Of a stretch of 64,000 bases of DNA, positions 1 through 18,328 are shown piece by piece; the stretch's first letter is position 1, and each line of letters starts with the position of its first letter. The DNA is taken from the NCBI GenBank assembly GCA_964016885.1, contig OZ024743.1, positions 86,676,001 to 86,740,000 of the forward strand, given 5' to 3'. Position numbers and translations under genes: made by a program. Source of the DNA: Eledone cirrhosa. Its lineage: Eukaryota. The notes under the pieces were generated by a model. It saw only the letters and a list, made by a program, of their open reading frames with translations. It searched no databases and had not been told where the DNA came from.

Positions 1-186
1 GCCATGTGCCTCCATATCCCTTTTAAATGATTTTTTAAATGATATTTTGAAATATACCTTTTTGTGATGGTTTTAGTGATGTTTCTGAATATACTTTTAA
101 TGTCTGTAATATTTCTTCCTAATAGACTATATAGACATCCATACATATATATGTTTAATATCATTAACATATGCATAAACATAAGG

Positions 187-1228
187 AACTTGCATTAAGC
201 CCGATGTTGCTCGGGGTCAGTAAGTTACCAAAGCTAGGTTGCACCACCTATTTTATAGCAGCACTTTTTTGCCTGCCAGGCACTGGGTGAATGAATTGCA
301 GACCTGGACTGCTGATGCAGGAGCTGCGCCAGCAGTGACAATTGTAGTTTCGCCTATGGATATTATCTCTGTGCAAAGAAGTGTTGAAATTTATTGTTTC
401 ACAGTACTTGCGTAACACACGTGTAGACGATGCCAGCCGAACAACAGAGCTGCGATGGAGTTGTTCTGCATGGTTGTCTAATGTGTGTTTTCTAAATTTA
501 AGACAGTAGGGAGGGGTGTGATATGGGGGAGAGTTAGCTGCTGTTTCTAGCAGGTTTAGTGACCTCATAGAGGATATGTGTTTTCTAAATTTAAGACAGT
601 AGGGAGGGGTGTGATATGGAGGAGAGTTAGCTGCTGTTTAGTGATCTCATAGAGGATATTATTGTGTATAGTAAATAAACTGATACTTCTTTCTTCCACG
701 TTCGTTGAGAGATGTTTTAAAAAAGATTTATCGCTATTTTTTTTGTTGTTGAATAAATTTATCTGTTGCTTTTGAATAATTGTTGTTTCGTATGAAATGT
801 AATAAGTTCTCTTTGTCATTGAAGTAAATAAATGTTTGACTGTTCCACACTCAAAAACAAACGTTCTCTCTCTCTCTCTCACTCTCTCTCTCTCTCTCTC
901 CTTTCTTCGGCGTTCATAAAGTAAGTTTGTAAGTTTAAGCGTATATAAGAGAAAGTTGCAGCCTGTATGTAGTTTTATCGAATTTTAAGGAGAGTAGAGA
1001 GTAAATCAGATTGTATTAGAGGAGTAAAGCGTCATGTATTTAGTTTTATCGATTATTTCCATAATTGCGGGTGAGTTTGAAATAAATAAATAGTTGTTGA
1101 CCTAAGTTAGACCATTTACAACATTCTTACAGACTTTGAATCGAATCGGTTTGAAATTGTGCAAATGTATAAACATGGAACATGCACACACACACAACAA
1201 CAACAATCTGTTTTTTTATAGATAATGA
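187..1228 (+). mobile_element. Putative non-autonomous Helentron/DINE-like element
   Basis: 5' ACTTGCA-TTAAGCCCGATGTTGCTCGGG hairpin-type end; a related end lies on - at about 17918-17950; internal (CT)n; 3' end TTTTATAGAT after (CA)n. Family assignment is inferred from architecture only. Confidence 0.4.
484..659. repeat. Tandem duplication, about 93-bp period
   Basis: TGTGTTTTCTAAATTTAAGACAGTAGGGAGGGGTGTGATATGG...CTCATAGAGGATA starts at 484 and again at 577; the second copy has a short internal deletion. Confidence 0.9.
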
Positions 1229-2007
1229 TGCTATCTAAATACATGTATAAAAGAAATTTTATCTTAGAAAATATGTAATATATGATACTATAAAATCATA
1301 TATAAAGTAATATATATTTTTTTACATATATCTTAATTAGAATTTTTTTTTTAAAGTAAATTCTAGAATAATCGGTAATTATAAATATTTTAACTAAGAA
1401 ATATTGGAGTTACCTTTTCCTTTATAATATAACACGCTTACACATTTCTTCTAAGTAACAACTAAACTTTACATAAATACTGAACATTTTTTTGTATAAT
1501 CTTCAACTTCGTAAATTGTAAATGTATTCCTATATAGATGCAACTATTGAATGTACAAAATAATCTTCTATAATAAAATAGAACTACTTCCTTTTTCTTA
1601 AATACATATTGAAAATGTAAACGGGAAATTCATCGTAACTATTCACATATAAAAATATTTAAATTATCTATCTATTAATAAAAACAACATATATACTCAC
1701 CGAAATTATTTATATGAATATTTATATAAATAACCTATTGTAATATAATAAAATATACTTACAACCCTAATTCTTCATAAAATATACTTATAAATATCTC
1801 TATAATATTAAAACTCACTATTAGAATAGACCTAATAATTAGTAGTATCCCTCATTTTTAAAAAATTTAATATTCTACCACTTCAACACATTTATAATTG
1901 TCATATTATATTATAAATACTACCAACATATATAATTATATAATTAAATAAATATAATTATTTCACTCTCTTTACATCATAACTAATACGATCCATACAA
2001 TTATATA

Positions 2008-2123
2008 TTAATAATTGTTTCTACTTTGGGCACAAGGCCAGCAATAACCCAGTGTATTACTGGTACTTTATTTTATCGACCCCGTAAGGATGAAAGGCAA
2101 AGTTAACCTCGGCGGGATTTGAA
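2008..2123 (-). mobile_element. Nin/Deu-domain SINE, 5'-truncated
   Basis: Reverse complement of TTCAAATCCCGCCGAGGTTAACTTTGCCTTTCATCCTTACGGGGTCGATAAAATAAAGTACCAG...TAGAAACAATTATT, shared with many copies in this window. Confidence 0.8.
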
Positions 2124-2406
2124 ATAATAATAGTCTATTTCTAACTATAATATATTTTTTTCTTATATTCTTCCCTTAAATTTTCTTACACCCTAATATT
2201 AACCCCTCTCTCTTCTTCCCTTAAAAAATAACACTAATAATTATTTTAATTTACCTAGCATCTAAATATAACGATCTTTTTCAACTTTACGTTATCCTTA
2301 TTAACATATTCATCCTAAGATTTTAATTTCTTTCACTATTCAAACAGAACTTAAAACGATAAGTTCTTGTTTTTGGATATGTCACTATCTATAAAACAAC
2401 TTTCGT

Positions 2407-2467
2407 ATTTTATCTGATGAGAGCGTACCAAAAAAATTTTTGTACCCTTGAAATATATATAATAAAA
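2407..2467 (+). ncRNA. Minimal type I hammerhead ribozyme (Penelope-like)
   Basis: Stem I ATTTTAT/ATAAAAT; core CTGATGA; stem II GAGCGTAC/GTACCCTT (one mismatch); GAAA; palindromic stem III TATATA; NUH = ATA. Confidence 0.75.
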
Positions 2468-2756
2468 TAAATATGGTTTTATAAAGATAGTTTCCATTTA
2501 TTAATATTATTGATATACTCCAGAAGAAATTTGTAGAATGCTTCGAATCTGTTATAAATAAATTTGTTGAATAACCAACAAATTAAATAACTCTTTGCTT
2601 ATATATATATGTATTAGGATTGGTGCTCTGAAATAGCGATGTATATATGAATGTATGTATAATACAATATACCGTATGTTTAATTAAAAACATTCAGAAG
2701 ACCATACACTATCGGTTTTAAAGTAGTGACTTCTTTTTCGCGAAAGAAGGGAGAGA

Positions 2757-2798
2757 AGCTAGCAGTCTGTTTCACGCTGGTTGGCGATCATCAGAGCC
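2757..2798 (-). ncRNA. Minimal hammerhead ribozyme, decayed copy
   Basis: Minus strand reads GGCT-CTGATGA-TCGC-CAACCA-GCGT-GAAA-CAGACTG-CT-AGCT; the U of NUH is mutated to C. Confidence 0.6.
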
Positions 2799-3068
2799 AT
2801 GCACCCCTGCTTCCACCGAAAATTATAGAAGCTGCATTCTTATAGAATTCCAGTAATAACCAGGAGCTGATTATACAGAGCGATTGCCGGTCCAGCGAAA
2901 ATTAGGTATTAGGATTGGTGCTCTGAAATAGCGATGTATACATGAATGTATGTATAGTATATTTGGCAATATACCGTATGTTTAATTAGAAACATTTAGA
3001 AGACATTCGGTATATTGCCAAATACACTATACATACATTCATGTATACATCGGAAGCAGGGGGCGCGT

Positions 3069-3109
3069 GGCTCTGATGATTGCCAACCAGTGTGAAACGA
3101 CTGTTAGCT
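3069..3109 (+). ncRNA. Minimal hammerhead ribozyme, decayed copy (inverted partner of 2757-2798)
   Basis: GGCT-CTGATGA-TTGC-CAACCA-GTGT-GAAA-CGACTG-TT-AGCT; CpG decay in stem II and one base missing in stem III. Confidence 0.6.
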
Positions 3110-3662
3110 TCTCTGCCTTCTTTCGCCGAAGAGAAGTAAGTGACATAGTCACTACTTTAAAACCGATAGCATATGGTCTTTGAAATGTTTATAATTAAAC
3201 ATACGGTATATTGCCAAATATACTATACATACATTCATATCATCATCATCATCATCATCATCATTTTACGACCGCTTTTCCCTGCTTGCAAGGGTGGGAC
3301 GGGTCCTATTCAGCACAGCATCTCTCCACTTCAGCGATCTGAGGTCTGCTCTCACCACCTCCGCCCATGTTTTTCATGGTCTTCCTCTACTAAGTCTTCC
3401 TTCATATATCATCATCATCATCATCATTTAACATCCATCTTCCACACTGGCATGGGTTAGATGAGTTTGTCCCATTTAGAGGCAAGATGGGTCGGGAAAC
3501 CATATCTCACTCATATAGGACTATTCCTGGCTGGTTTTCTATGGCTGGATGCCCTTCCTAACACCAACCATATTTACAGTGTGTGCTGGGTGTTTTGTGG
3601 TACCAACATAACATATATATATATATACATATATACATATATACACACACACACACACATAT

Positions 3663-4002
3663 ATGGAGGCACATGTCTTAGTGGTTAGAGCATTGGCCTT
3701 GCAATCAAAAGGTTGTGAGTTCAATTCTCAGACCGGGTGATGTGTTGTTTCCTTGAGCAAGACACTTTATTTCACATTGCTCCAGTTTACTCAGCTGTAG
3801 AAATGAGATGATAGAGACTGGGGTCCATATCATTCCACTGCAAAGTGGTCGTGGAGGTTCCACGGCAAAAAAGCACCCAGCTCACACTGTAAATGAGGTT
3901 GGTGTTAAGAAGGGCATCCAGTTGTAGAAATCAAGCCAGAATCAGTTCCCGTCCCACCCTTGCAAGCAGGGAAAAGCGGACGTAAAATGATGATGATGAT
4001 GA
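3663..4002 (+). mobile_element. tRNA-headed CORE-like SINE with RTE-type (ATG)n tail
   Basis: A-box-like TAGTGGTTAGAG and B-box GAGTTCAATTC; CCTTGAGCAAGACACTTT...CTCAGCTGTAGAAATGAG resembles the CORE domain; then GAAGGGCATCCAG motif and (ATG)n. Near-identical copies at 25268-25607 and 43014-43395. Confidence 0.8.
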
Positions 4003-4004
4003 TA

Positions 4005-4054
<50 letters not shown>

Positions 4055-4207
4055 ATTAAAATTAAAATACTTGAGTGCGTTAGAGTTAAACACACTCGTC
4101 GTATTAGAGAAATGACAGTATAAGATATAGCTCAATGTATTCCAACAGAGCCGAAAAATTATAAAAAATAAACAAAGAAGCCTTCAATACATCAAAAGTC
4201 TTTATTA

Positions 4208-4248
4208 GCTGACAATGTTTCGTCCCATTAATAAGGACTCATCAGAGC
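4208..4248 (-). ncRNA. Minimal type I hammerhead ribozyme
   Basis: Minus strand reads GCT-CTGATGA-GTCCT-TATTAAT-GGGAC-GAAA-CATTG-TC-AGC: canonical core, NUH = GTC. Confidence 0.8.
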
Positions 4249-5220
4249 AAGTAAAGAGACAAGAAGCATTAACGGCCAGAACAAACCAAAACTCAGAAGA
4301 ACAGGGAATTTATATCTATGAAAACTTAGGAAAGACATCAAGGAAAGACATGCTAAAGCTAAAAGTGTGCATTTGCAAATATAGACTATAGGGCAGGAGA
4401 GCGAGTAATATGTCAAACCCACGTTGAAAGAACAATATAAGACAAATACATGAAACACAACATGGTAACACAATATGAGAATTATAATATGATATAGAAT
4501 ACAATATAATGGATAATAAGAAATATAAAGCTTAATATATATGTATATATATATATCCATATATATACACATTTACACAAACACATACTAACACTTATTT
4601 AAATATTTAAATATAAGTATACTCGTTATAATATAATAATCATTATAATAGCATAATCACCCTGACGGTGTGCATAAACAATATCAAAAACGATGGAATA
4701 ATATACTGACATTAAAAAATATATAAAACTACATCATACGTATCATTTAAGGTCAACAAATTGTATATAAAGTTTTTCACAGGGTAAGAAAAAATATCAT
4801 ATAAAAATAAAGTATGGTGAAAAAATATATATAACTATATATAATATTGACAATAAATATCCAGAGGTATATGCAGTTCAAATTCATAAAATATTACAAA
4901 ACAGTACCTCAATATCGGACATGTATATATAATTCAATTACATAAAAATAATATGATATATTAATGTTAATATTACAATAGCGGACACACAGAATCATGT
5001 GTATATATATGGATATATATATATACATATATATTAAGCTAAGCATATATATTAAGCTTAAGTGGTAGTGCATTATAAGCCTTCGCCCCCTCACCAGATA
5101 TTCATTAGTAGCTTCAGTTGCCAACACTTTGAGGGCGACTGGCCGAGAAGCTAGTTGGTCAGTCGTCCTCTCTGTCTCTGTCTCTGAATTCTCGGACCCA
5201 TGGTTTTTTACATATTCCTT

Positions 5221-5294
5221 TGTTATATTCCAATACCTGATGATATCACCGGATTCATATGGAACCCGGTCATTGAAATGATCATAATATAATA
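5221..5294 (+). ncRNA. Hammerhead ribozyme candidate with imperfect stem I
   Basis: CTGATGA, long stem II (ACCGG/CCGGT, TTC/GAA), GAAA, palindromic stem III TGATCA, then TA. Stem I pairs (TGTTATAT/ATATAATA) only with an 8-nt bulge. Confidence 0.55.
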
Positions 5295-5703
5295 AACCTT
5301 TCAAGGATTTACACCAGTCCAGCCTCCTGTTATTTTATTTCATTTATATATATATATATGTATGTATGTATGTATATATATATATATATAACCCATGCTA
5401 GCGTGGAAGATAGATGTTAAACGATGATGATGATGATGATATATATATATATATATATATCACACAAAGATAAAATACATATGTATTCTTTCACATTTTC
5501 TCATTTCAGTTATTGGTTAACTGCCATACTGGGGCACTGTCAACAAAAGTTTAATTGATTGCACTGACCAACATACATTCTCTGGTACTTACTGCATCTC
5601 ACAAAGAAGGAGCAAAATAAAATTCTATTCGGGAGGTATGTATTATATGTATTTGAACAAAGAATATAAAAGAACCTAACTATACCTTTAACACTTTGCT
5701 GAC

Positions 5704-6303
5704 ATGTATGCCGAACTACAGTGCCAAACTCAGGAAGGAAGATTGCTACGTGAGTTAGACATCACTTGTTCTAACCTGGACAAACAACGACAAGTTATGC
5801 TTCAGGGAATGACAAATGACCAACAGAAATGGAGGAAGAGATTATTAAAATACCAACTACAAATGGAAATTAACAAATTGAAACACCATGGTGGTGGCGA
5901 ATGGACTGAAACGGTTCAGCGGATGGTATCGTTGAATCAATGTCTCAACGAAATGTCTGAGCAGGATATTCTACTAAATCTGAAGAAAATAGGAGGTGAC
6001 AACTGCGATGCTAATCAGCGTAAAAGGTTGCGTAGAGTTTTATATGTCAAATATATGAATCAGACATTTGTTCGGTGCACAACAACACGGTCTAGTAAGC
6101 AGACATTGCATCAATGCTCCAGCGACAGCGTTAAACCATCGTTCCAACAAGTAAATAATGCAACACTCTTACGGGACAACACCAGATTATCTTCGCCTGG
6201 ATACAAACCTGCAGCTTTCTACCAAGAAAATAGCTTTAGTGGTCAGAGTTTACAATTACCAAAACTTGCCAACAGTGTTGGAAGGGAGAATAGATCTGAC
6301 TGA
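5704..6303 (+). CDS. Candidate intronless 199-aa protein with N-terminal coiled coil
   Basis: ATG-to-TGA ORF in non-repetitive sequence with ordinary composition; helical-looking segment RLLRELDITCSNLDKQRQVMLQGMTNDQQKWRKRLLKYQLQ. No domain recognised with certainty. Confidence 0.45.
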   Translation: MYAELQCQTQEGRLLRELDITCSNLDKQRQVMLQGMTNDQQKWRKRLLKYQLQMEINKLKHHGGGEWTETVQRMVSLNQCLNEMSEQDILLNLKKIGGDNCDANQRKRLRRVLYVKYMNQTFVRCTTTRSSKQTLHQCSSDSVKPSFQQVNNATLLRDNTRLSSPGYKPAAFYQENSFSGQSLQLPKLANSVGRENRSD

Positions 6304-6317
6304 GAAGAATTTCACAA

Positions 6318-9300
6318 ATAACAGCATCAACAACAATAAAAACAGTAATAACAACAACAGCAACAACAATAGCAAAAGTGACAATAACAGTGACAACAAC
6401 AACATCAGCAACAACAATAACAACAGCAACAACAATAACAATAACAACAGCATCAACAATAACAACAACAATAACAATAACAACAGCATCAACAATAACA
6501 ACAACAATAACAGCAGCAGCATCAACAATAACAGCAGCAACAACAATAACAATAACAACAGCAACAACAATAACAGCAGTAACAACAGTAACAACAACAG
6601 CAGCATCAACAATAACAACAGCAACAGTAGCAACAACAACAGTAACAACAATAACAACAACAACAGTAACAACAGCAACAGTAACAACAACAACAGCATC
6701 AACAATAACAACAACAATAACAACAGCAACAACAATAACAACAGCAGTGACAACAACAGTAACAACAATAACAACAGCAACAGAAATGCCAACACTAGCA
6801 ACAGCAACAACAACAACAACACCAGCAGTAACAACAACAACAGCAACAGAAATGTCAACACTAGCAGCAGCAACAACAACAACAACACCAGCAGTAACAA
6901 CAACAACAGCAACAGAAATGCCAACACTAGCAGCAGCAACAACAACAACACCAGCAGTAACAACAACAACAGCAACAGAAATGCCAACACTAGCAGCAGC
7001 AACAACAACACCAGCAGTAACAACAACAACAACAACAGAAATGCCAACACTAGCAGCAGCAACAACAACAACAACACCAGCAGTAACAACAACAACAACA
7101 ACAGAAATGCCAACACTAACAGCAGCAACAACAACAACAACACCAGCAGTAACAACAACAACAACAGAAATGCCAACACTAGCAGCAGCAACAACAACAA
7201 CAACACCAGCAGTAACAACAACAACAGCAACAGAAATGCCAACACTAGCAGCAGCAACAACAACAACAACACCAGCAGTAACAACAACAACAACAACAGA
7301 AATGTCAACACTAACAGCAGCAACAACAACAACAACACCAGCAGTAACAACAACAACAGCAACAGAAATGCCAACACTAGCAGCAGCAATAACAACAACA
7401 ACACCAGCAGTAACAACAACAACAACAACAGAAATGCCAACACTAACAGCAGCAACAACAACAACAACACCAGCAGTAACAACAACAACAACAGAAATGC
7501 CAACACTAGCAGCAGCAACAACAACAACAACACCAGCAGTAACAACAACAACAACAACAGAAATGTCAACACTAGCAGCAGCAACAACAACAACAACACC
7601 AGCAGTAACAACAACAACAACAACAGAAATGCCAACACTAGCAGCAGCAACAACAACAACAACACCAGCAGTAACAACAACAACAACAACAGAAATGCCA
7701 ACACTAGCAGCAGCAATAACAACAACAACACCAGCAGTAACAACAACAACAACAACAGAAATGCCAACACTAACAGCAGCAACAACAACAACAACACCAG
7801 CAGTAACAACAACAACAACAGAAATGCCAACACTAGCAGCAGCAACAACAACAACAACACCAGCAGTAACAACAACAACAACAACAGAAATGCCAACACT
7901 AGCAGCAGCAACAACAACAACAACACCAGCAGTAACAACAACAACAACAACAGAAATGCCAACACTAACAGCAGCAACAACAACAACAACACCAGCAGTA
8001 ACAACAACAACAACAGAAATGCCAACACTAGCAGCAGCAACAACAACAACAACACCAGCAGTAACAACAACAACAACAACAGAAATGTCAACACTAACAG
8101 CAGCAACAACAACAACAACACCAGCAGTAACAACAACAACAACAACAGAAATGCCAACACTAGCAGCAGCAACAACAACAACAACACCAGCAGTAACAAC
8201 AACAACAGCAACAGAAATGCCAACACTAGCAGCAGCAACAACAACAACAACAACACCAGCAGTAACAACAACAACAGCAACAGAAATGCCAACACTAGCA
8301 GCAGCAATAACAACAACAACACCAGCAGTAACAACAACAACAACAACAGAAATGCCAACACTAACAGCAGCAACAACAACAACAACACCAGCAGTAACAA
8401 CAACAACAACAGAAATGCCAACACTAGCAGCAGCAACAACAACAACAACACCAGCAGTAACAACAACAACAACAACAACAGAAATGTCAACACTAACAGC
8501 AGCAACAACAACAACAACACCAGCAGTAACAACAACAACAACAGAAATGCCAACACTAGCAGCAGCAACAACAACAACAACACCAGCAGTAACAACAACA
8601 ACAACAACAACAGAAATGTCAACACTAACAGCAGCAACAACAACAACAACACCAGCAGTAACAACAACAACAACAACAGAAATGCCAACACTAGCAGCAG
8701 CAACAACAACAACAACACCAGCAGTAACAACAACAACAACAACAGAAATGCCAACACTAACAGCAGCAACAACAACAACAACACCAGCAGTAACAACAAC
8801 AACAACAGAAATGCCAACACTAGCAGCAGCAACAACAACAACAACACCAGCAGTAACAACAACAACAACAACAGAAATGTCAACACTAACAGCAGCAACA
8901 ACAACAACAACACCAGCAGTAACAACAACAACAACAACAGAAATGCCAACACTAGCAGCAGCAACAACAACAACAACACCAGCAGTAACAACAACAACAA
9001 CAACAGAAATGCCAACACTAACAGCAGCAACAACAACAACAACACCAGCAGTAACAACAACAACAACAACAGAATTGCCAACACTAGCAGCAGCAACAAC
9101 AACAACAACACCAGCAGTAACAACAACAACAACAACAGAAATGTCAACACTAACAGCAGCAACAACAACAACAACACCAGCAGTAACAACAACAACAGCA
9201 ACAGAAATGCCAACACTAGCAGCAGCAACAACAACAACAACACCAGCAGTAACAACAACAACAACAACAGAAATGCCAACACTAGCAGCAGCAACAACAA

Positions 9301-12300
9301 CAACAACACCAGCAGTAACAACAACAACAACAGAAATGCCAACACTAGCAGCAGCAACAACAACAACAACACCAGCAGTAACAACAACAACAACAACAGA
9401 AATGCCAACACTAGCAGCAGCAACAACAACAACAACACCAGCAGTAACAACAACAACAACAACAGAAATGCCAACACTAGCAGCAGCAACAACAACAACA
9501 ACACCAGCAGTAACAACAACAACAACAGAAATGCCAACACTAGCAGCAGCAACAACAACAACAACACCAGCAGTAACAACAACAACAACAACAGAAATGC
9601 CAACACTAGCAGCAGCAACAACAACAACAACACCAGCAGTAACAACAACAACAACAGAAATGCCAACACTAGCAGCAGCAACAACAACAACAACACCAGC
9701 AGTAACAACAACAACAACAGAAATGCCAACACTAGCAGCAGCAACAACAACAACAACACCAGCAGTAACAACAACAACAACAACAGAAATGCCAACACTA
9801 GCAGCAGCAACAACAACAACAACACCAGCAGTAACAACAACAACAACAGAAATGCCAACACTAGCAGCAGCAACAACAACAACAACACCAGCAGTAACAA
9901 CAACAACAACAACAGAAATGCCAACACTAGCAGCAGCAACAACAACAACAACACCAGCAGTAACAACAACAACAACAGAAATGCCAACACTAGCAGCAGC
10001 AACAACAACAACAACACCAGCAGTAACAACAACAACAACAACAGAAATGCCAACACTAGCAGCAGCAACAACAACAACAACACCAGCAGTAACAACAACA
10101 ACAACAGAAATGCCAACACTAGCAGCAGCAACAACAACAACAACACCAGCAGTAACAACAACAACAACAACAGAAATGCCAACACTAGCAGCAGCAACAA
10201 CAACAACAACACCAGCAGTAACAACAACAACAACAACAGAAATGCCAACACTAGCAGCAGCAACAACAACAACAACACCAGCAGTAACAACAACAACAAC
10301 AGAAATGCCAACACTAGCAGCAGCAACAACAACAACAACACCAGCAGTAACAACAACAACAACAACAGAAATGCCAACACTAGCAGCAGCAACAACAACA
10401 ACAACACCAGCAGTAACAACAACAACAACAGAAATGCCAACACTAGCAGCAGCAACAACAACAACAACACCAGCAGTAACAACAACAACAACAGAAATGC
10501 CAACACTAGCAGCAGCAACAACAACAACAACACCAGCAGTAACAACAACAACAACAACAGAAATGCCAACACTAGCAGCAGCAACAACAACAACAACACC
10601 AGCAGTAACAACAACAACAACAGAAATGCCAACACTAGCAGCAGCAACAACAACAACAACACCAGCAGTAACAACAACAACAACAACAGAAATGCCAACA
10701 CTAGCAGCAGCAACAACAACAACAACACCAGCAGTAACAACAACAACAACAGAAATGCCAACACTAGCAGCAGCAACAACAACAACAACACCAGCAGTAA
10801 CAACAACAACAACAACAGAAATGCCAACACTAGCAGCAGCAACAACAACAACAACACCAGCAGTAACAACAACAACAACAACAGAAATGCCAACACTAGC
10901 AGCAGCAACAACAACAACAACACCAGCAGTAACAACAACAACAACAACAGAAATGCCAACACTAGCAGCAGCAACAACAACAACAACACCAGCAGTAACA
11001 ACAACAACAACAACAGAAATGCCAACACTAGCAGCAGCAACAACAACAACAACACCAGCAGTAACAACAACAACAGCAACAGAAATGCCAACACTAACAG
11101 CAGCAACAACAACAACAACACCAGCAGTAACAACAACAACAACAACAGAAATGCCAACACTAGCAGCAGCAACAACAACAACAACACCAGCAGTAACAAC
11201 AACAACAGCAACAGAAATGCCAACACTAGCAGCAGCAACAACAACAACAACACCAGCAGTAACAACAACAACAACAACAGAAATGCCAACACTAGCAGCA
11301 GCAACAACAACAACAACACCAGCAGTAACAACAACAACAACAGAAATGCCAACACTAACAGCAGCAACAACAACAACAACACCAGCAGTAACAACAACAA
11401 CAACAGAAATGCCAACACTAACAGCAGCAACAACAACAACAACACCAGCAGTAACAACAACAACAACAGAAATGCCAACACTAGCAGCAGCAACAACAAC
11501 AACAACACCAGCAGCAACAACAACAACAACACCAGCAGTAACAACAACAACAACAACAGAAATGCCAACACTAACAGCAGCAACAACAACAACAACACCA
11601 GCAGTAACAACAACAACAACAGAAATGCCAACACTAGCAGCAGCAACAACAACAACAACACCAGCAGCAACAACAACAACAACAGAAATGCCAACACTAG
11701 CAGCAGCAACAACAACAACAACACCAGCAGTAACAACAACAACAGCAACAACAACAACAACACCAGCAGCAACAACAACAACAACAACACCAGCAGTAAC
11801 AACAACAACAACAGAAATGCCAACACTAGCAGCAGCAACAACAACAACAACACCAGCAGCAACAACAACAACAACAGAAATGTCAACACTAACAGCAGCA
11901 ACAACAACAACAACACCAGCAGTAACAACAACAACAGCAACAGAAATGCCAACACTAGCAGCAGCAACAACAACAACAACACCAGCAGTAACAACAACAA
12001 CAACAACAGAAATGCCAACACTAACAGCAGCAACAACAACAACAACACCAGCAGTAACAACAACAACAACAGAAATGCCAACACTAACAGCAGCAACAAC
12101 AACAACAACACCAGCAGTAACAACAACAACAACAGAAATGCCAACACTAGCAGCAGCAACAACAACAACAACACCAGCAGTAACAACAACAACAGCAACA
12201 ACAACAACAACACCAGCAGCAACAACAACAACAACAACACCAGCAGTAACAACAACAACAACAACAGAAATGCCAACACTAGCAGCAGCAACAACAACAA

Positions 12301-14711
12301 CAACACCAGCAGTAACAACAACAACAACAACAGAAATGCCAACACTAGCAGCAGCAACAACAACAACAACACCAGCAGTAACAACAACAACAGCAACAAC
12401 AACAACAACACCAGCAGCAACAACAACAACAACAACACCAGCAGTAACAACAACAACAACAACAGAAATGCCAACACTAGCAGCAGCAACAACAACAACA
12501 ACACCAGCAGTAACAACAACAACAACAACAGAAATGCCAACACTAACAGCAGCAACAACAACAACAACACCAGCAGTAACAACAACAACAACAACAGAAA
12601 TGCCAACACTAGCAGCAGCAACAACAACAACAACACCAGCAGTAACAACAACAACAACAGAAATGCCAACACTAGCAGCAGCAACAACAACAACAACACC
12701 AGCAGTAACAACAACAACAACAACAGAAATGCCAACACTAGCAGCAGCAACAACAACAACAACACCAGCAGTAACAACAACAACAACAACAGAAATGCCA
12801 ACACTAGCAGCAGCAACAACAACAACAACACCAGCAGTAACAACAACAACAACACCAGCAGTAACAACAACAACAACAGAAATGCCAACACTAGCAGCAG
12901 CAACAACAACAACAACACCAGCAGTAACAACAACAACAACAGAAATGCCAACACTAGCAGCAGCAACAACAACAACAACACCAGCAGTAACAACAACAAC
13001 AACAGAAATGCCAACACTAGCAGCAGCAACAACAACAACAACACCAGCAGTAACAACAACAACAACAACAGAAATGCCAACACTAGCAGCAGCAACAACA
13101 ACAACAACACCAGCAGTAACAACAACAACAACAACAGAAATGCCAACACTAACAGCAGCAACAACAACAACAACACCAGCAGTAACAACAACAACAACAA
13201 CAGAAATGCCAACACTAGCAGCAGCAACAACAACAACAACACCAGCAGTAACAACAACAACAACAACAGAAATGCCAACACTAGCAGCAGCAACAACAAC
13301 AACAACACCAGCAGTAACAACAACAACAACAACAGAAATGCCAACACTAGCAGCAGCAACAACAACAACAACACCAGCAGTAACAACAACAACAACAACA
13401 GAAATGCCAACACTAGCAGCAGCAACAACAACAACAACACCAGCAGTAACAACAACAACAACAACAGAAATGCCAACACTAACAGCAGCAACAACAACAA
13501 CAACACCAGCAGTAACAACAACAACAACAACAGAAATGCCAACACTAACAGCAGCAACAACAACAACAACACCAGTAGTAACAACAACAACAACAACAGA
13601 AATGCCAACACTAACAGCAGCAGCAACAACAACAACAACAACAACAGTAACAACAACAACAACAGCAACAGAAATGCCAACACTAACAGCAGCAACAACA
13701 ACAACAACACCAGCAGTAACAACAACAACAACAGAAATGCCAACACTAGCAGCAGCAACAACAACAACAACACCAGCAGTAACAACAACAACAACAGAAA
13801 TGCCAACACTAGCAGCAGCAACAACAACAACAACACCAGCAGTAACAACAACAACAACAGAAATGCCAACACTAGCAGCAGCAACAACAACAACAACACC
13901 AGCAGTAACAACAACAACAACAACAGAAATGCCAACACTAGCAGCAGCAACAACAACAACAACACCAGCAGTAACAACAACAACAACAACAGAAATGCCA
14001 ACACTAACAGCAGCAACAACAACAACAACACCAGCAGTAACAACAACAACAACAACAGAAATGCCAACACTAGCAGCAGCAACAACAACAACAACACCAG
14101 CAGTAACAACAACAACAACAACAGAAATGCCAACACTAGCAGCAGCAACAACAACAACAACACCAGCAGTAACAACAACAACAACAACAGAAATGCCAAC
14201 ACTAGCAGCAGCAACAACAACAACAACACCAGCAGTAACAACAACAACAACAACAGAAATGCCAACACTAGCAGCAGCAACAACAACAACAACACCAGCA
14301 GTAACAACAACAACAACAACAGAAATGCCAACACTAACAGCAGCAACAACAACAACAACACCAGCAGTAACAACAACAACAACAACAGAAATGCCAACAC
14401 TAACAGCAGCAACAACAACAACAACACCAGTAGTAACAACAACAACAACAACAGAAATGCCAACACTAACAGCAGCAGCAACAACAACAACAACAACAAC
14501 AGTAACAACAACAACAACAGCAACAGAAATGCCAACACTAACAGCAGCAACAACAACAACAACACCAGCAGTAACAACAACAACAACAACAACAGAAATG
14601 CCAACACTAGCAGCAGCAACAACAACAACAACACCAGCAGTAACAACAACAACAGCAACAGAAATGTCAACACTAGCAGCAGCAACAACAACAACAACAG
14701 CAACAACACAA
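6318..14711. repeat. 8.4-kb AAC-derived minisatellite (63/66-bp unit)
   Basis: Degenerate (AAC/AAT/AGC)n to about 6775, then roughly 120 units of AGAAATGCCAACACTAGCAGCAGC(AAC)nACCAGCAGT(AAC)n. Confidence 0.97.
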
Positions 14712-14819
14712 TGCATTACTACCTCTATAAAGCTGGTGACACTATAAAATGCACCCAGTACACTTTGTTTCTATGGTTGGCATTATCATCCAACCATAGG
14801 AATGTGTCTAAAGGGTAGC

Positions 14820-18277: not shown

Positions 18278-18328
18278 AGTGTCAAACAGAGTTGTTTCAA
18301 GATTTGTTAATCTTTCATCAGTGACACT
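18278..18328 (-). ncRNA. Minimal type I hammerhead ribozyme
   Basis: Minus strand reads AGTGTCA-CTGATGA-AAGATT-AACA-AATCTT-GAAA-CAACTCTG-TT-TGACACT: 7-bp stem I, 6-bp stem II, NUH = GTT. Confidence 0.8.

Follow-up and report, generated by a model that had tools for sequence, protein, structure and literature searches.

Five hammerhead ribozyme motifs lie within 3 kb in a stretch of 64,000 nucleotides of the Eledone cirrhosa genome (contig OZ024743.1, positions 86,676,001 to 86,740,000; hereafter the window, to which all positions refer unless a locus is named). This raises the question of which elements carry them and whether their bunching is anything more than chance. In the reading that we favour, with a probability of nearly nine in ten, the region contains the 3' ends of four high-copy hammerhead families, two of them Hydra-clade Penelope-like elements (PLEs) and two of them likely non-autonomous passengers, and the bunching is likely fortuitous.

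Identity and condition of the motifs

The CTGATGA...GAAA...NH motifs were confirmed at all five places given by the initial annotation (Table 1). A strict descriptor recovered three of them (H1, H3 and H4) and a relaxed one four, adding H2; the broken first stem I pair of H5 hides it from both. The hammerhead search proposed as a check came out well with the descriptors and failed with Rfam, which gave no matches in the window at the gathering threshold.

Chance matches are one explanation to be considered in AT-rich, palindrome-rich DNA, and the composition of H1, mostly A/T runs, together with the silence of Rfam would fit it. However, the strict descriptor found nothing in 300 of 300 dinucleotide shuffles of 2301-5400 and the relaxed one a single match in each of two of the 300, the real frequency being above the shuffled one. 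Moreover the core is conserved across copies, being intact in 22 of 26 alignment rows of family 1, 27 of 36 of family 2, 25 of 29 of family 4 and 16 of 19 of family 5 (identical rows collapsed). The covariation that had been anticipated among paralogous copies is seen in family 4, where 17 of 29 rows have C-G as the first stem I pair, 12 have U-A and none has a mismatch; judged from the alignment, this swap is one inherited compensatory change and not 29 events. Stem sequences differ from family to family, and stem III is palindromic throughout with letters specific to each family. The chance-match explanation is already refuted by the shuffles and the family alignments.

Table 1. Elements, hammerheads and host reading frame in the window
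Feature	Position	Strand	Description
Family 1 3' UTR, first piece	16..188	+	collinear with 1228-2015 and 2123-2614 in L036, L040, L114 and L115
Family 1 3' UTR, second piece	1228..2015	+	AT-rich; collinear in other copies
Short abundant repeat	2016..2122		interrupts family 1, as seen against other copies
Family 1 3' pseudo-LTR	2123..2600	+	3' end fixed at about 2600, then (TA)n
H1	2406..2469	+	intact minimal type I hammerhead of family 1; core starts 2414; 8-bp stem I, stem III palindromic throughout, AUA triplet; predicted cut after 2461
Family 2	2612..3013	-	about 1.3 units of a non-coding head-to-tail monomer of 315 nt (unit 315-316 nt), retrozyme-like
H2	2757..2798	-	hammerhead of family 2, damaged by a C at 16.1 (position 2762); core starts 2794; predicted cut after 2761
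Inverted family 2 copy	3052..3240	+	5'-truncated, by match to family 2; a 5' inversion typical of PLEs
H3	3069..3109	+	family 2 hammerhead, weakened: 1-nt stem III deletion and two stem II changes; core starts 3073; predicted cut after 3105
(TA)n tract	4002..4052		at family 4 3' end, from the sequence
Family 4 3' UTR and pseudo-LTR	4053..4997	-	5'-truncated, by genome copies
H4	4208..4248	-	intact family 4 hammerhead; core starts 4245; G10.1-C11.1 pair, GUC triplet; predicted cut after 4211
Short inverted family 4 piece	4998..5059	+	at the truncated 5' end; 4529-4572 and 4997-5040 100% complementary
Family 5	5062..5345	+	3'-terminal 285 nt of a non-coding, tandemly arranged unit of 1.92 kb, as delimited in L117, L108 and L193/L194
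H5	5233..5290	+	hammerhead of family 5 with an A at 5287 that damages the first stem I pair; core starts 5237; predicted cut after 5286
(TA)n tract	5345..5390		after family 5, from the sequence
199-aa host ORF	5704..6303	+	single-copy, octopod-conserved; separate from the elements

Three of the five window copies (H2, H3 and H5) carry damage relative to their own family, and H1 and H4 are intact. The CUGANGA and GAAA core with its UH is complete in H1, H3, H4 and H5; H2 alone lacks U16.1, a U in 34 of 36 family 2 rows. In H5 an A replaces the G that stands at the first stem I pair in all 18 other family 5 rows, as read off the alignment. The tiny palindromic stem III that had been described for these minimal type I motifs would form in a swapped dimer with a predicted length of 8 bp for H1, H5 and undamaged family 2 and of 6 bp for H4. 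For each of the eight motifs assessed, the modelled dimer energy per strand, which is not a measure of activity, was below that of the monomer fold (-8.5 against -2.2 kcal/mol for H1, -8.4 against -3.5 kcal/mol for H4), and the predicted minimum-energy fold of H1, H2, H3 and H4 differs from the active monomer fold. Minimal hammerheads of PLE pseudo-LTRs have the same short palindromic stem III, show low in vitro activity and need dimers (Cervera and de la Pena 2014, PMC4209133). There, most are likewise single dispersed motifs from truncated PLEs, and there are opposite-strand pairs 100-700 bp apart, as in H2/H3. The window copies are lone truncated relics, and probably none of them acts here.

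A sixth intact hammerhead is present at 18280-18328 (-), matched by the strict descriptor at 18321(-), and belongs to a family other than the four. It has a 7-bp stem I, a 6-bp stem II and a predicted stable monomer (-9.2 kcal/mol). It has one diverged relative, in L036, and no PLE ORF was found near it.

The elements carrying the hammerheads

In the host genome of 3.0 Gb the flank of each motif is a high-copy interspersed repeat, and these repeats form four families. The first look gave 3118 candidates for family 1, 3038 for family 2, 1987 for family 4 and 2214 for family 5; 40 candidates per family out of these roughly 2,000-3,100 were scored, and the matches numbered 45, 102, 41 and 41, respectively. 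The best 24, 24, 29 and 24 loci, window copy excluded, were examined, and these sets are biased to close copies because the best-scoring loci were chosen. H2 and H3 belong to one family and are inverted relative to each other, which agrees with the four unrelated stem sets noticed at the outset. The copy search of the flanks that had been suggested returned a repeat, an ORF with RT and GIY-YIG-like regions, and a second repeat for families 1 and 4, and tandem units for families 2 and 5. The accumulation of several ribozyme-carrying retroelement families is thereby borne out: two of the families are Hydra-clade PLEs, and the other two are tandem elements that are non-coding. In agreement with the remark that no RT was recognised nearby, tblastn finds no PLE RT in the window.

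Full copies of families 1 and 4 have a single ORF, with RT and, at its C terminus, a GIY-YIG-like region, flanked by the hammerhead-bearing repeats. In family 1 the ORF region of L115 has the same repeat on either side, and in L114 the 3' copy is truncated; in family 4 the repeat runs into the ORF in three copies and the complete order is found in L112 and L111/L011. The ORFs of L112, L111, L115 and L114 are all broken by frameshifts, stops or insertions. Both families have the motifs RWR, DKT and CxCX5C. Read by eye, family 4 has the CxCX5C linker, CxxC and CxH around a conserved E and N, and no CCHH; family 1 copies have the same linker and endonuclease layout, partly decayed, and the two proteins are 46% identical. 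Pfam gave no RT or GIY-YIG match on these ORFs (with seven ORF pieces from the elements plus the 199-aa ORF as queries, its only results were GIY-YIG on a Neptune-like fragment and one PDZ below the cutoff), and the assignment rests on motifs and homologues. The C-terminal ORF of family 4 matches 1049 proteins at E <= 1e-20, including Apostichopus P0069 (E 3e-66), the aligned residues of which agree by eye with Hydra-1_Ajap in the supplement of PMC8557442.

By their motifs and this homology to a Hydra-1_Ajap-like protein, families 1 and 4 are classified as Hydra-clade PLEs. Naiad PLEs are characterised by an N-terminal endonuclease and the absence of a canonical hammerhead; this assignment was considered and rejected, since families 1 and 4 have a hammerhead and carry the endonuclease region at the C terminus. 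The features in common with the Hydra clade as described by Craig et al. (2021, PMC8557442) are the C-terminal GIY-YIG region, DKT, an RWK-like motif, the CxCX5C linker, insertion at (TA)n, a hammerhead near the 3' end and partial tandems with 5' inversions. On the other hand the units of families 1 and 4 measure about 4.0-4.3 kb, with long 3' UTRs, against generally <3 kb there, and have RWR in place of RWK. Their hammerhead stems are unlike those of Hydra-1_Obim of Octopus bimaculoides, a Hydra PLE with a hammerhead already published in the same work.

The window copy of family 1 is split by an unclassified 1-kb insertion at 189-1227 that is unrelated to it. The short repeats at 2016-2122 and 3240-4000 are presumably SINEs. 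Elsewhere a 7.5-kb tandem duplication (G000:C1706:14000-34000) contains several family 1 pieces and a LINE-like ORF.

Two Hydra-type protein queries of the genome gave 156,219 and 91,623 candidates. The top matches fall into two Hydra families, in which the open frame has 821 codons and up to about 714, respectively; some copies are in tandem, and the median identity over 1.2 kb is 99.9% in the one and 99.7% in the other. In the first (L200-L229, e.g. G000:C3:3234363-3236726) copies with the open 821-codon frame are 99.9% identical, tandems are 3.9 kb apart and a hammerhead is present in both repeats, sharing its stem I with H1; this family is probably active. The repeats of the second near-identical family (L230-L259, frame of up to 714 codons) contain hammerhead-like cores in which GAAA is followed by one additional base, and their 5' and 3' versions differ.

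Families 2 and 5 are non-coding. In family 2 there is read-through into a further unit in 12 of 24 copies, with a type I hammerhead in each unit, and the 24 loci have no longer body in common. In three of six copies, those where a whole unit could be excised, the predicted circular fold was more stable than shuffles (z -2.8, -5.3 and -4.2). Family 2 has the sequence characters of a non-LTR retrozyme, the tandem units of which are non-coding, measure 150-450 nt and each contain a type I hammerhead. In the descriptions of these elements (Cervera and de la Pena 2020, PMC7229834; Li et al. 2026, preprint) it finds its like in the 315-nt size, the GC content of 37-39% and the non-coding head-to-tail unit with one type I hammerhead. 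It differs in that it comprises mostly 1-2.3 units, with a PLE-type fixed 3' end and 5' inversions.

The 1.92-kb unit of family 5 occurs in copies with terminal redundancy or in full tandems, and exceeds the retrozyme range of 51-972 bp given by Li et al. (2026, bioRxiv 10.64898/2026.07.22.740005). Its longest open frame has 104 codons, and tblastn of Hydra- and Neptune-like proteins against the unit and 24 further loci gave no match. There are two fixed 3' ends about 145 nt apart, used by 13 and 11 of 24 copies, respectively, both in (TA)n. A Neptune-like ORF upstream of one family 5 copy (L100/L120) was considered as a parent and rejected; since other family 5 copies are without the ORF it is an independent insertion. 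This PLE ORF (L120:1889-4434) has a CX4CXXC linker, by eye, and is accompanied by an inverted 5'-truncated copy. No autonomous partner of family 2 or 5 was seen among the families found (the two intact Hydra families and the matches listed), and family 5 shares with the Hydra families only a short CTCC-containing motif beyond the 3' ends. Families 2 and 5 are likely non-autonomous, non-coding passengers.

Families 4 and 5 meet head to head at 4998-5062 with no separate target tract between them. The join could be one template-switch event or two insertions, and is absent from 24 other family 5 loci.

Clustering, shared targets and the neighbouring gene

The rarity that the initial annotation implied for such a cluster does not survive comparison with the genome background. 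In 53 grid-sampled 10-kb regions (530 kb, 42 of the regions from the four largest contigs) the strict descriptor finds 29 motifs and the relaxed one 32, with six shuffles each giving 0-2. This density of about 55 per Mb extrapolates to about 164,000 intact motifs genome-wide (bootstrap 90,000-243,000). One sampled region has four motifs in 3.1 kb and another three, each with at most two families, and no sampled 3.1-kb window has more than two. With same-family neighbours collapsed by eye to 23 events, a Poisson model predicts that, among non-overlapping windows of 3.1 kb in the whole genome, about 355 have at least three families and about 12 have four. The four-family figure is an undercount, because the descriptor misses damaged motifs and because two-family windows are observed at about twice the Poisson rate (1.8% against 0.8%). 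By this expectation the present stretch is an upper-tail case, yet one to be found many times over; the bunching of five motifs here is likely due to chance and the cluster is ordinary.

Shared targeting would make such places hotspots: insertions keep the flanking (TA)n, so that PLE families would pile into the same tracts. Indeed families 1 and 2 share one short (TA)n at 2600-2611, tail to tail, an arrangement that recurs in L058, and the pair of families 4 and 5 has a tract on each side. Nevertheless a second PLE-type sequence within 500 nt past the 3' tract was found in only 7 of 82 family copies (8.5%), the rate being 13% for random tiles (134 of 1007) and 6.7% for tract sides (86 of 1280). 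The density of foreign hammerheads in the family flanks is 60-90 per Mb, the random sample giving about 57, and the window has 7 (TA)n tracts where 5.1 are expected. The tests for shared-target clustering in family flanks and 3' tracts were therefore negative, and a hotspot is improbable.

The motifs had also been linked to the 199-aa gene directly downstream. This gene is real, with four homologues of 57-67% identity, including those of Octopus bimaculoides, O. vulgaris and Argonauta. There is a pyrimidine-rich, splice-acceptor-like site at 5490-5509, about 195 nt before the ATG at 5704, so the cluster could be placed in an intron of the 5' UTR. Co-option of the cluster, for instance by cleavage of the pre-mRNA from such an upstream intron, would be favoured by that site and by the position of H1, H3 and H5 on the same strand as the gene. 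Against it, H3 and H5 are damaged, H1 requires a second copy for a complete stem III, and the insertions are multi-copy and young (closest copies 90-99% identical) beside a single-copy, octopod-conserved gene. Such a regulatory role is very unlikely, and the link does not hold; chance accumulation of the 3' ends of abundant elements is still the preferred reading.

The surroundings include an 8.4-kb tandem array at 6300-14747, with a 66/132-nt period and open in several frames, one of which can be read as a Thr-rich mucin-like repeat that begins at the end of the 199-aa ORF. In addition, a 1024-codon open frame on the minus strand of L113 (10 kb before the window) is, by its motifs, what we take to be a LINE endonuclease-RT look-alike.

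Proposed mechanism and significance

Past the 3' end there is a (TA)n tract in 21 of 24 copies of family 1, 11 of 24 of family 2, 26 of 29 of family 4 and 13 of 24 of family 5, against 7% of random positions; nearly all copies without it read into the ORF or the next unit. At five junctions read by eye, CTCC stands about 8-15 nt beyond the fixed 3' end in read-through copies of families 1 and 4, at both family 5 ends and in an intact Hydra family; it is absent beyond the 3' end in family 2. Internal RT initiation has been demonstrated for a Poseidon PLE (Frangieh et al. 2024, PMC11167929). We infer that the fixed 3' ends are sites where reverse transcription starts, and that family 5 borrows a Hydra protein. 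A tandem element would be transcribed, and two of its hammerheads would pair through the palindromic stem III and excise one unit, possibly circularised. The PLE protein would nick a (TA)n tract and start reverse transcription at a fixed internal position immediately 3' to the hammerhead region. As reverse transcription would usually halt early, most insertions would retain the hammerhead-bearing end alone; 5' truncation with inversions is seen in the window elements.

Hydra-like coding sequence makes up about 4% of the sampled DNA (21,710 of 530,000 bases), compared with few Hydra families outside cnidarians in PMC8557442. The motif estimate stands against 2,000-9,000 per genome in PMC4209133, obtained with a different descriptor, and up to 120,000 retrozyme copies are given for axolotl in PMC7229834. 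Since the window hammerheads are invisible at the Rfam gathering threshold, Rfam counts for cephalopods, such as the 235 hammerheads of the giant squid (PMC6962438), may be large underestimates. No published genome-wide count of minimal hammerheads for an octopus was found in the limited literature covered. For O. vulgaris, 31 recently active Penelope-like families appear in PMC13282606, whose repeat library may already include the four families described here.

We tentatively propose, at somewhat less than even odds, that intact minimal hammerheads number about 160,000 in this genome (bootstrap 90,000-240,000), which would be on a par with the highest count in the literature covered. They would derive from a probably still active radiation of Hydra-clade PLEs (dozens of 99.9%-identical copies with an open 821-aa frame) that also mobilises non-coding passengers. 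Among these would be the 1.92-kb unit, whose two alternative 3' ends are each followed by the same short signal as at the autonomous Hydra RT start.

The cluster itself carries little weight, and the elements are of a known kind, being new families of a known clade. The scale, the near-identical intact Hydra families and the non-coding passengers are modestly interesting. The genome has near-identical intact Hydra elements together with a retrozyme-like unit of 315 nt and a passenger of 1.92 kb, all with exact ends, and offers a clean system for studying the function of hammerheads in PLEs and whether retrozymes are PLE passengers.
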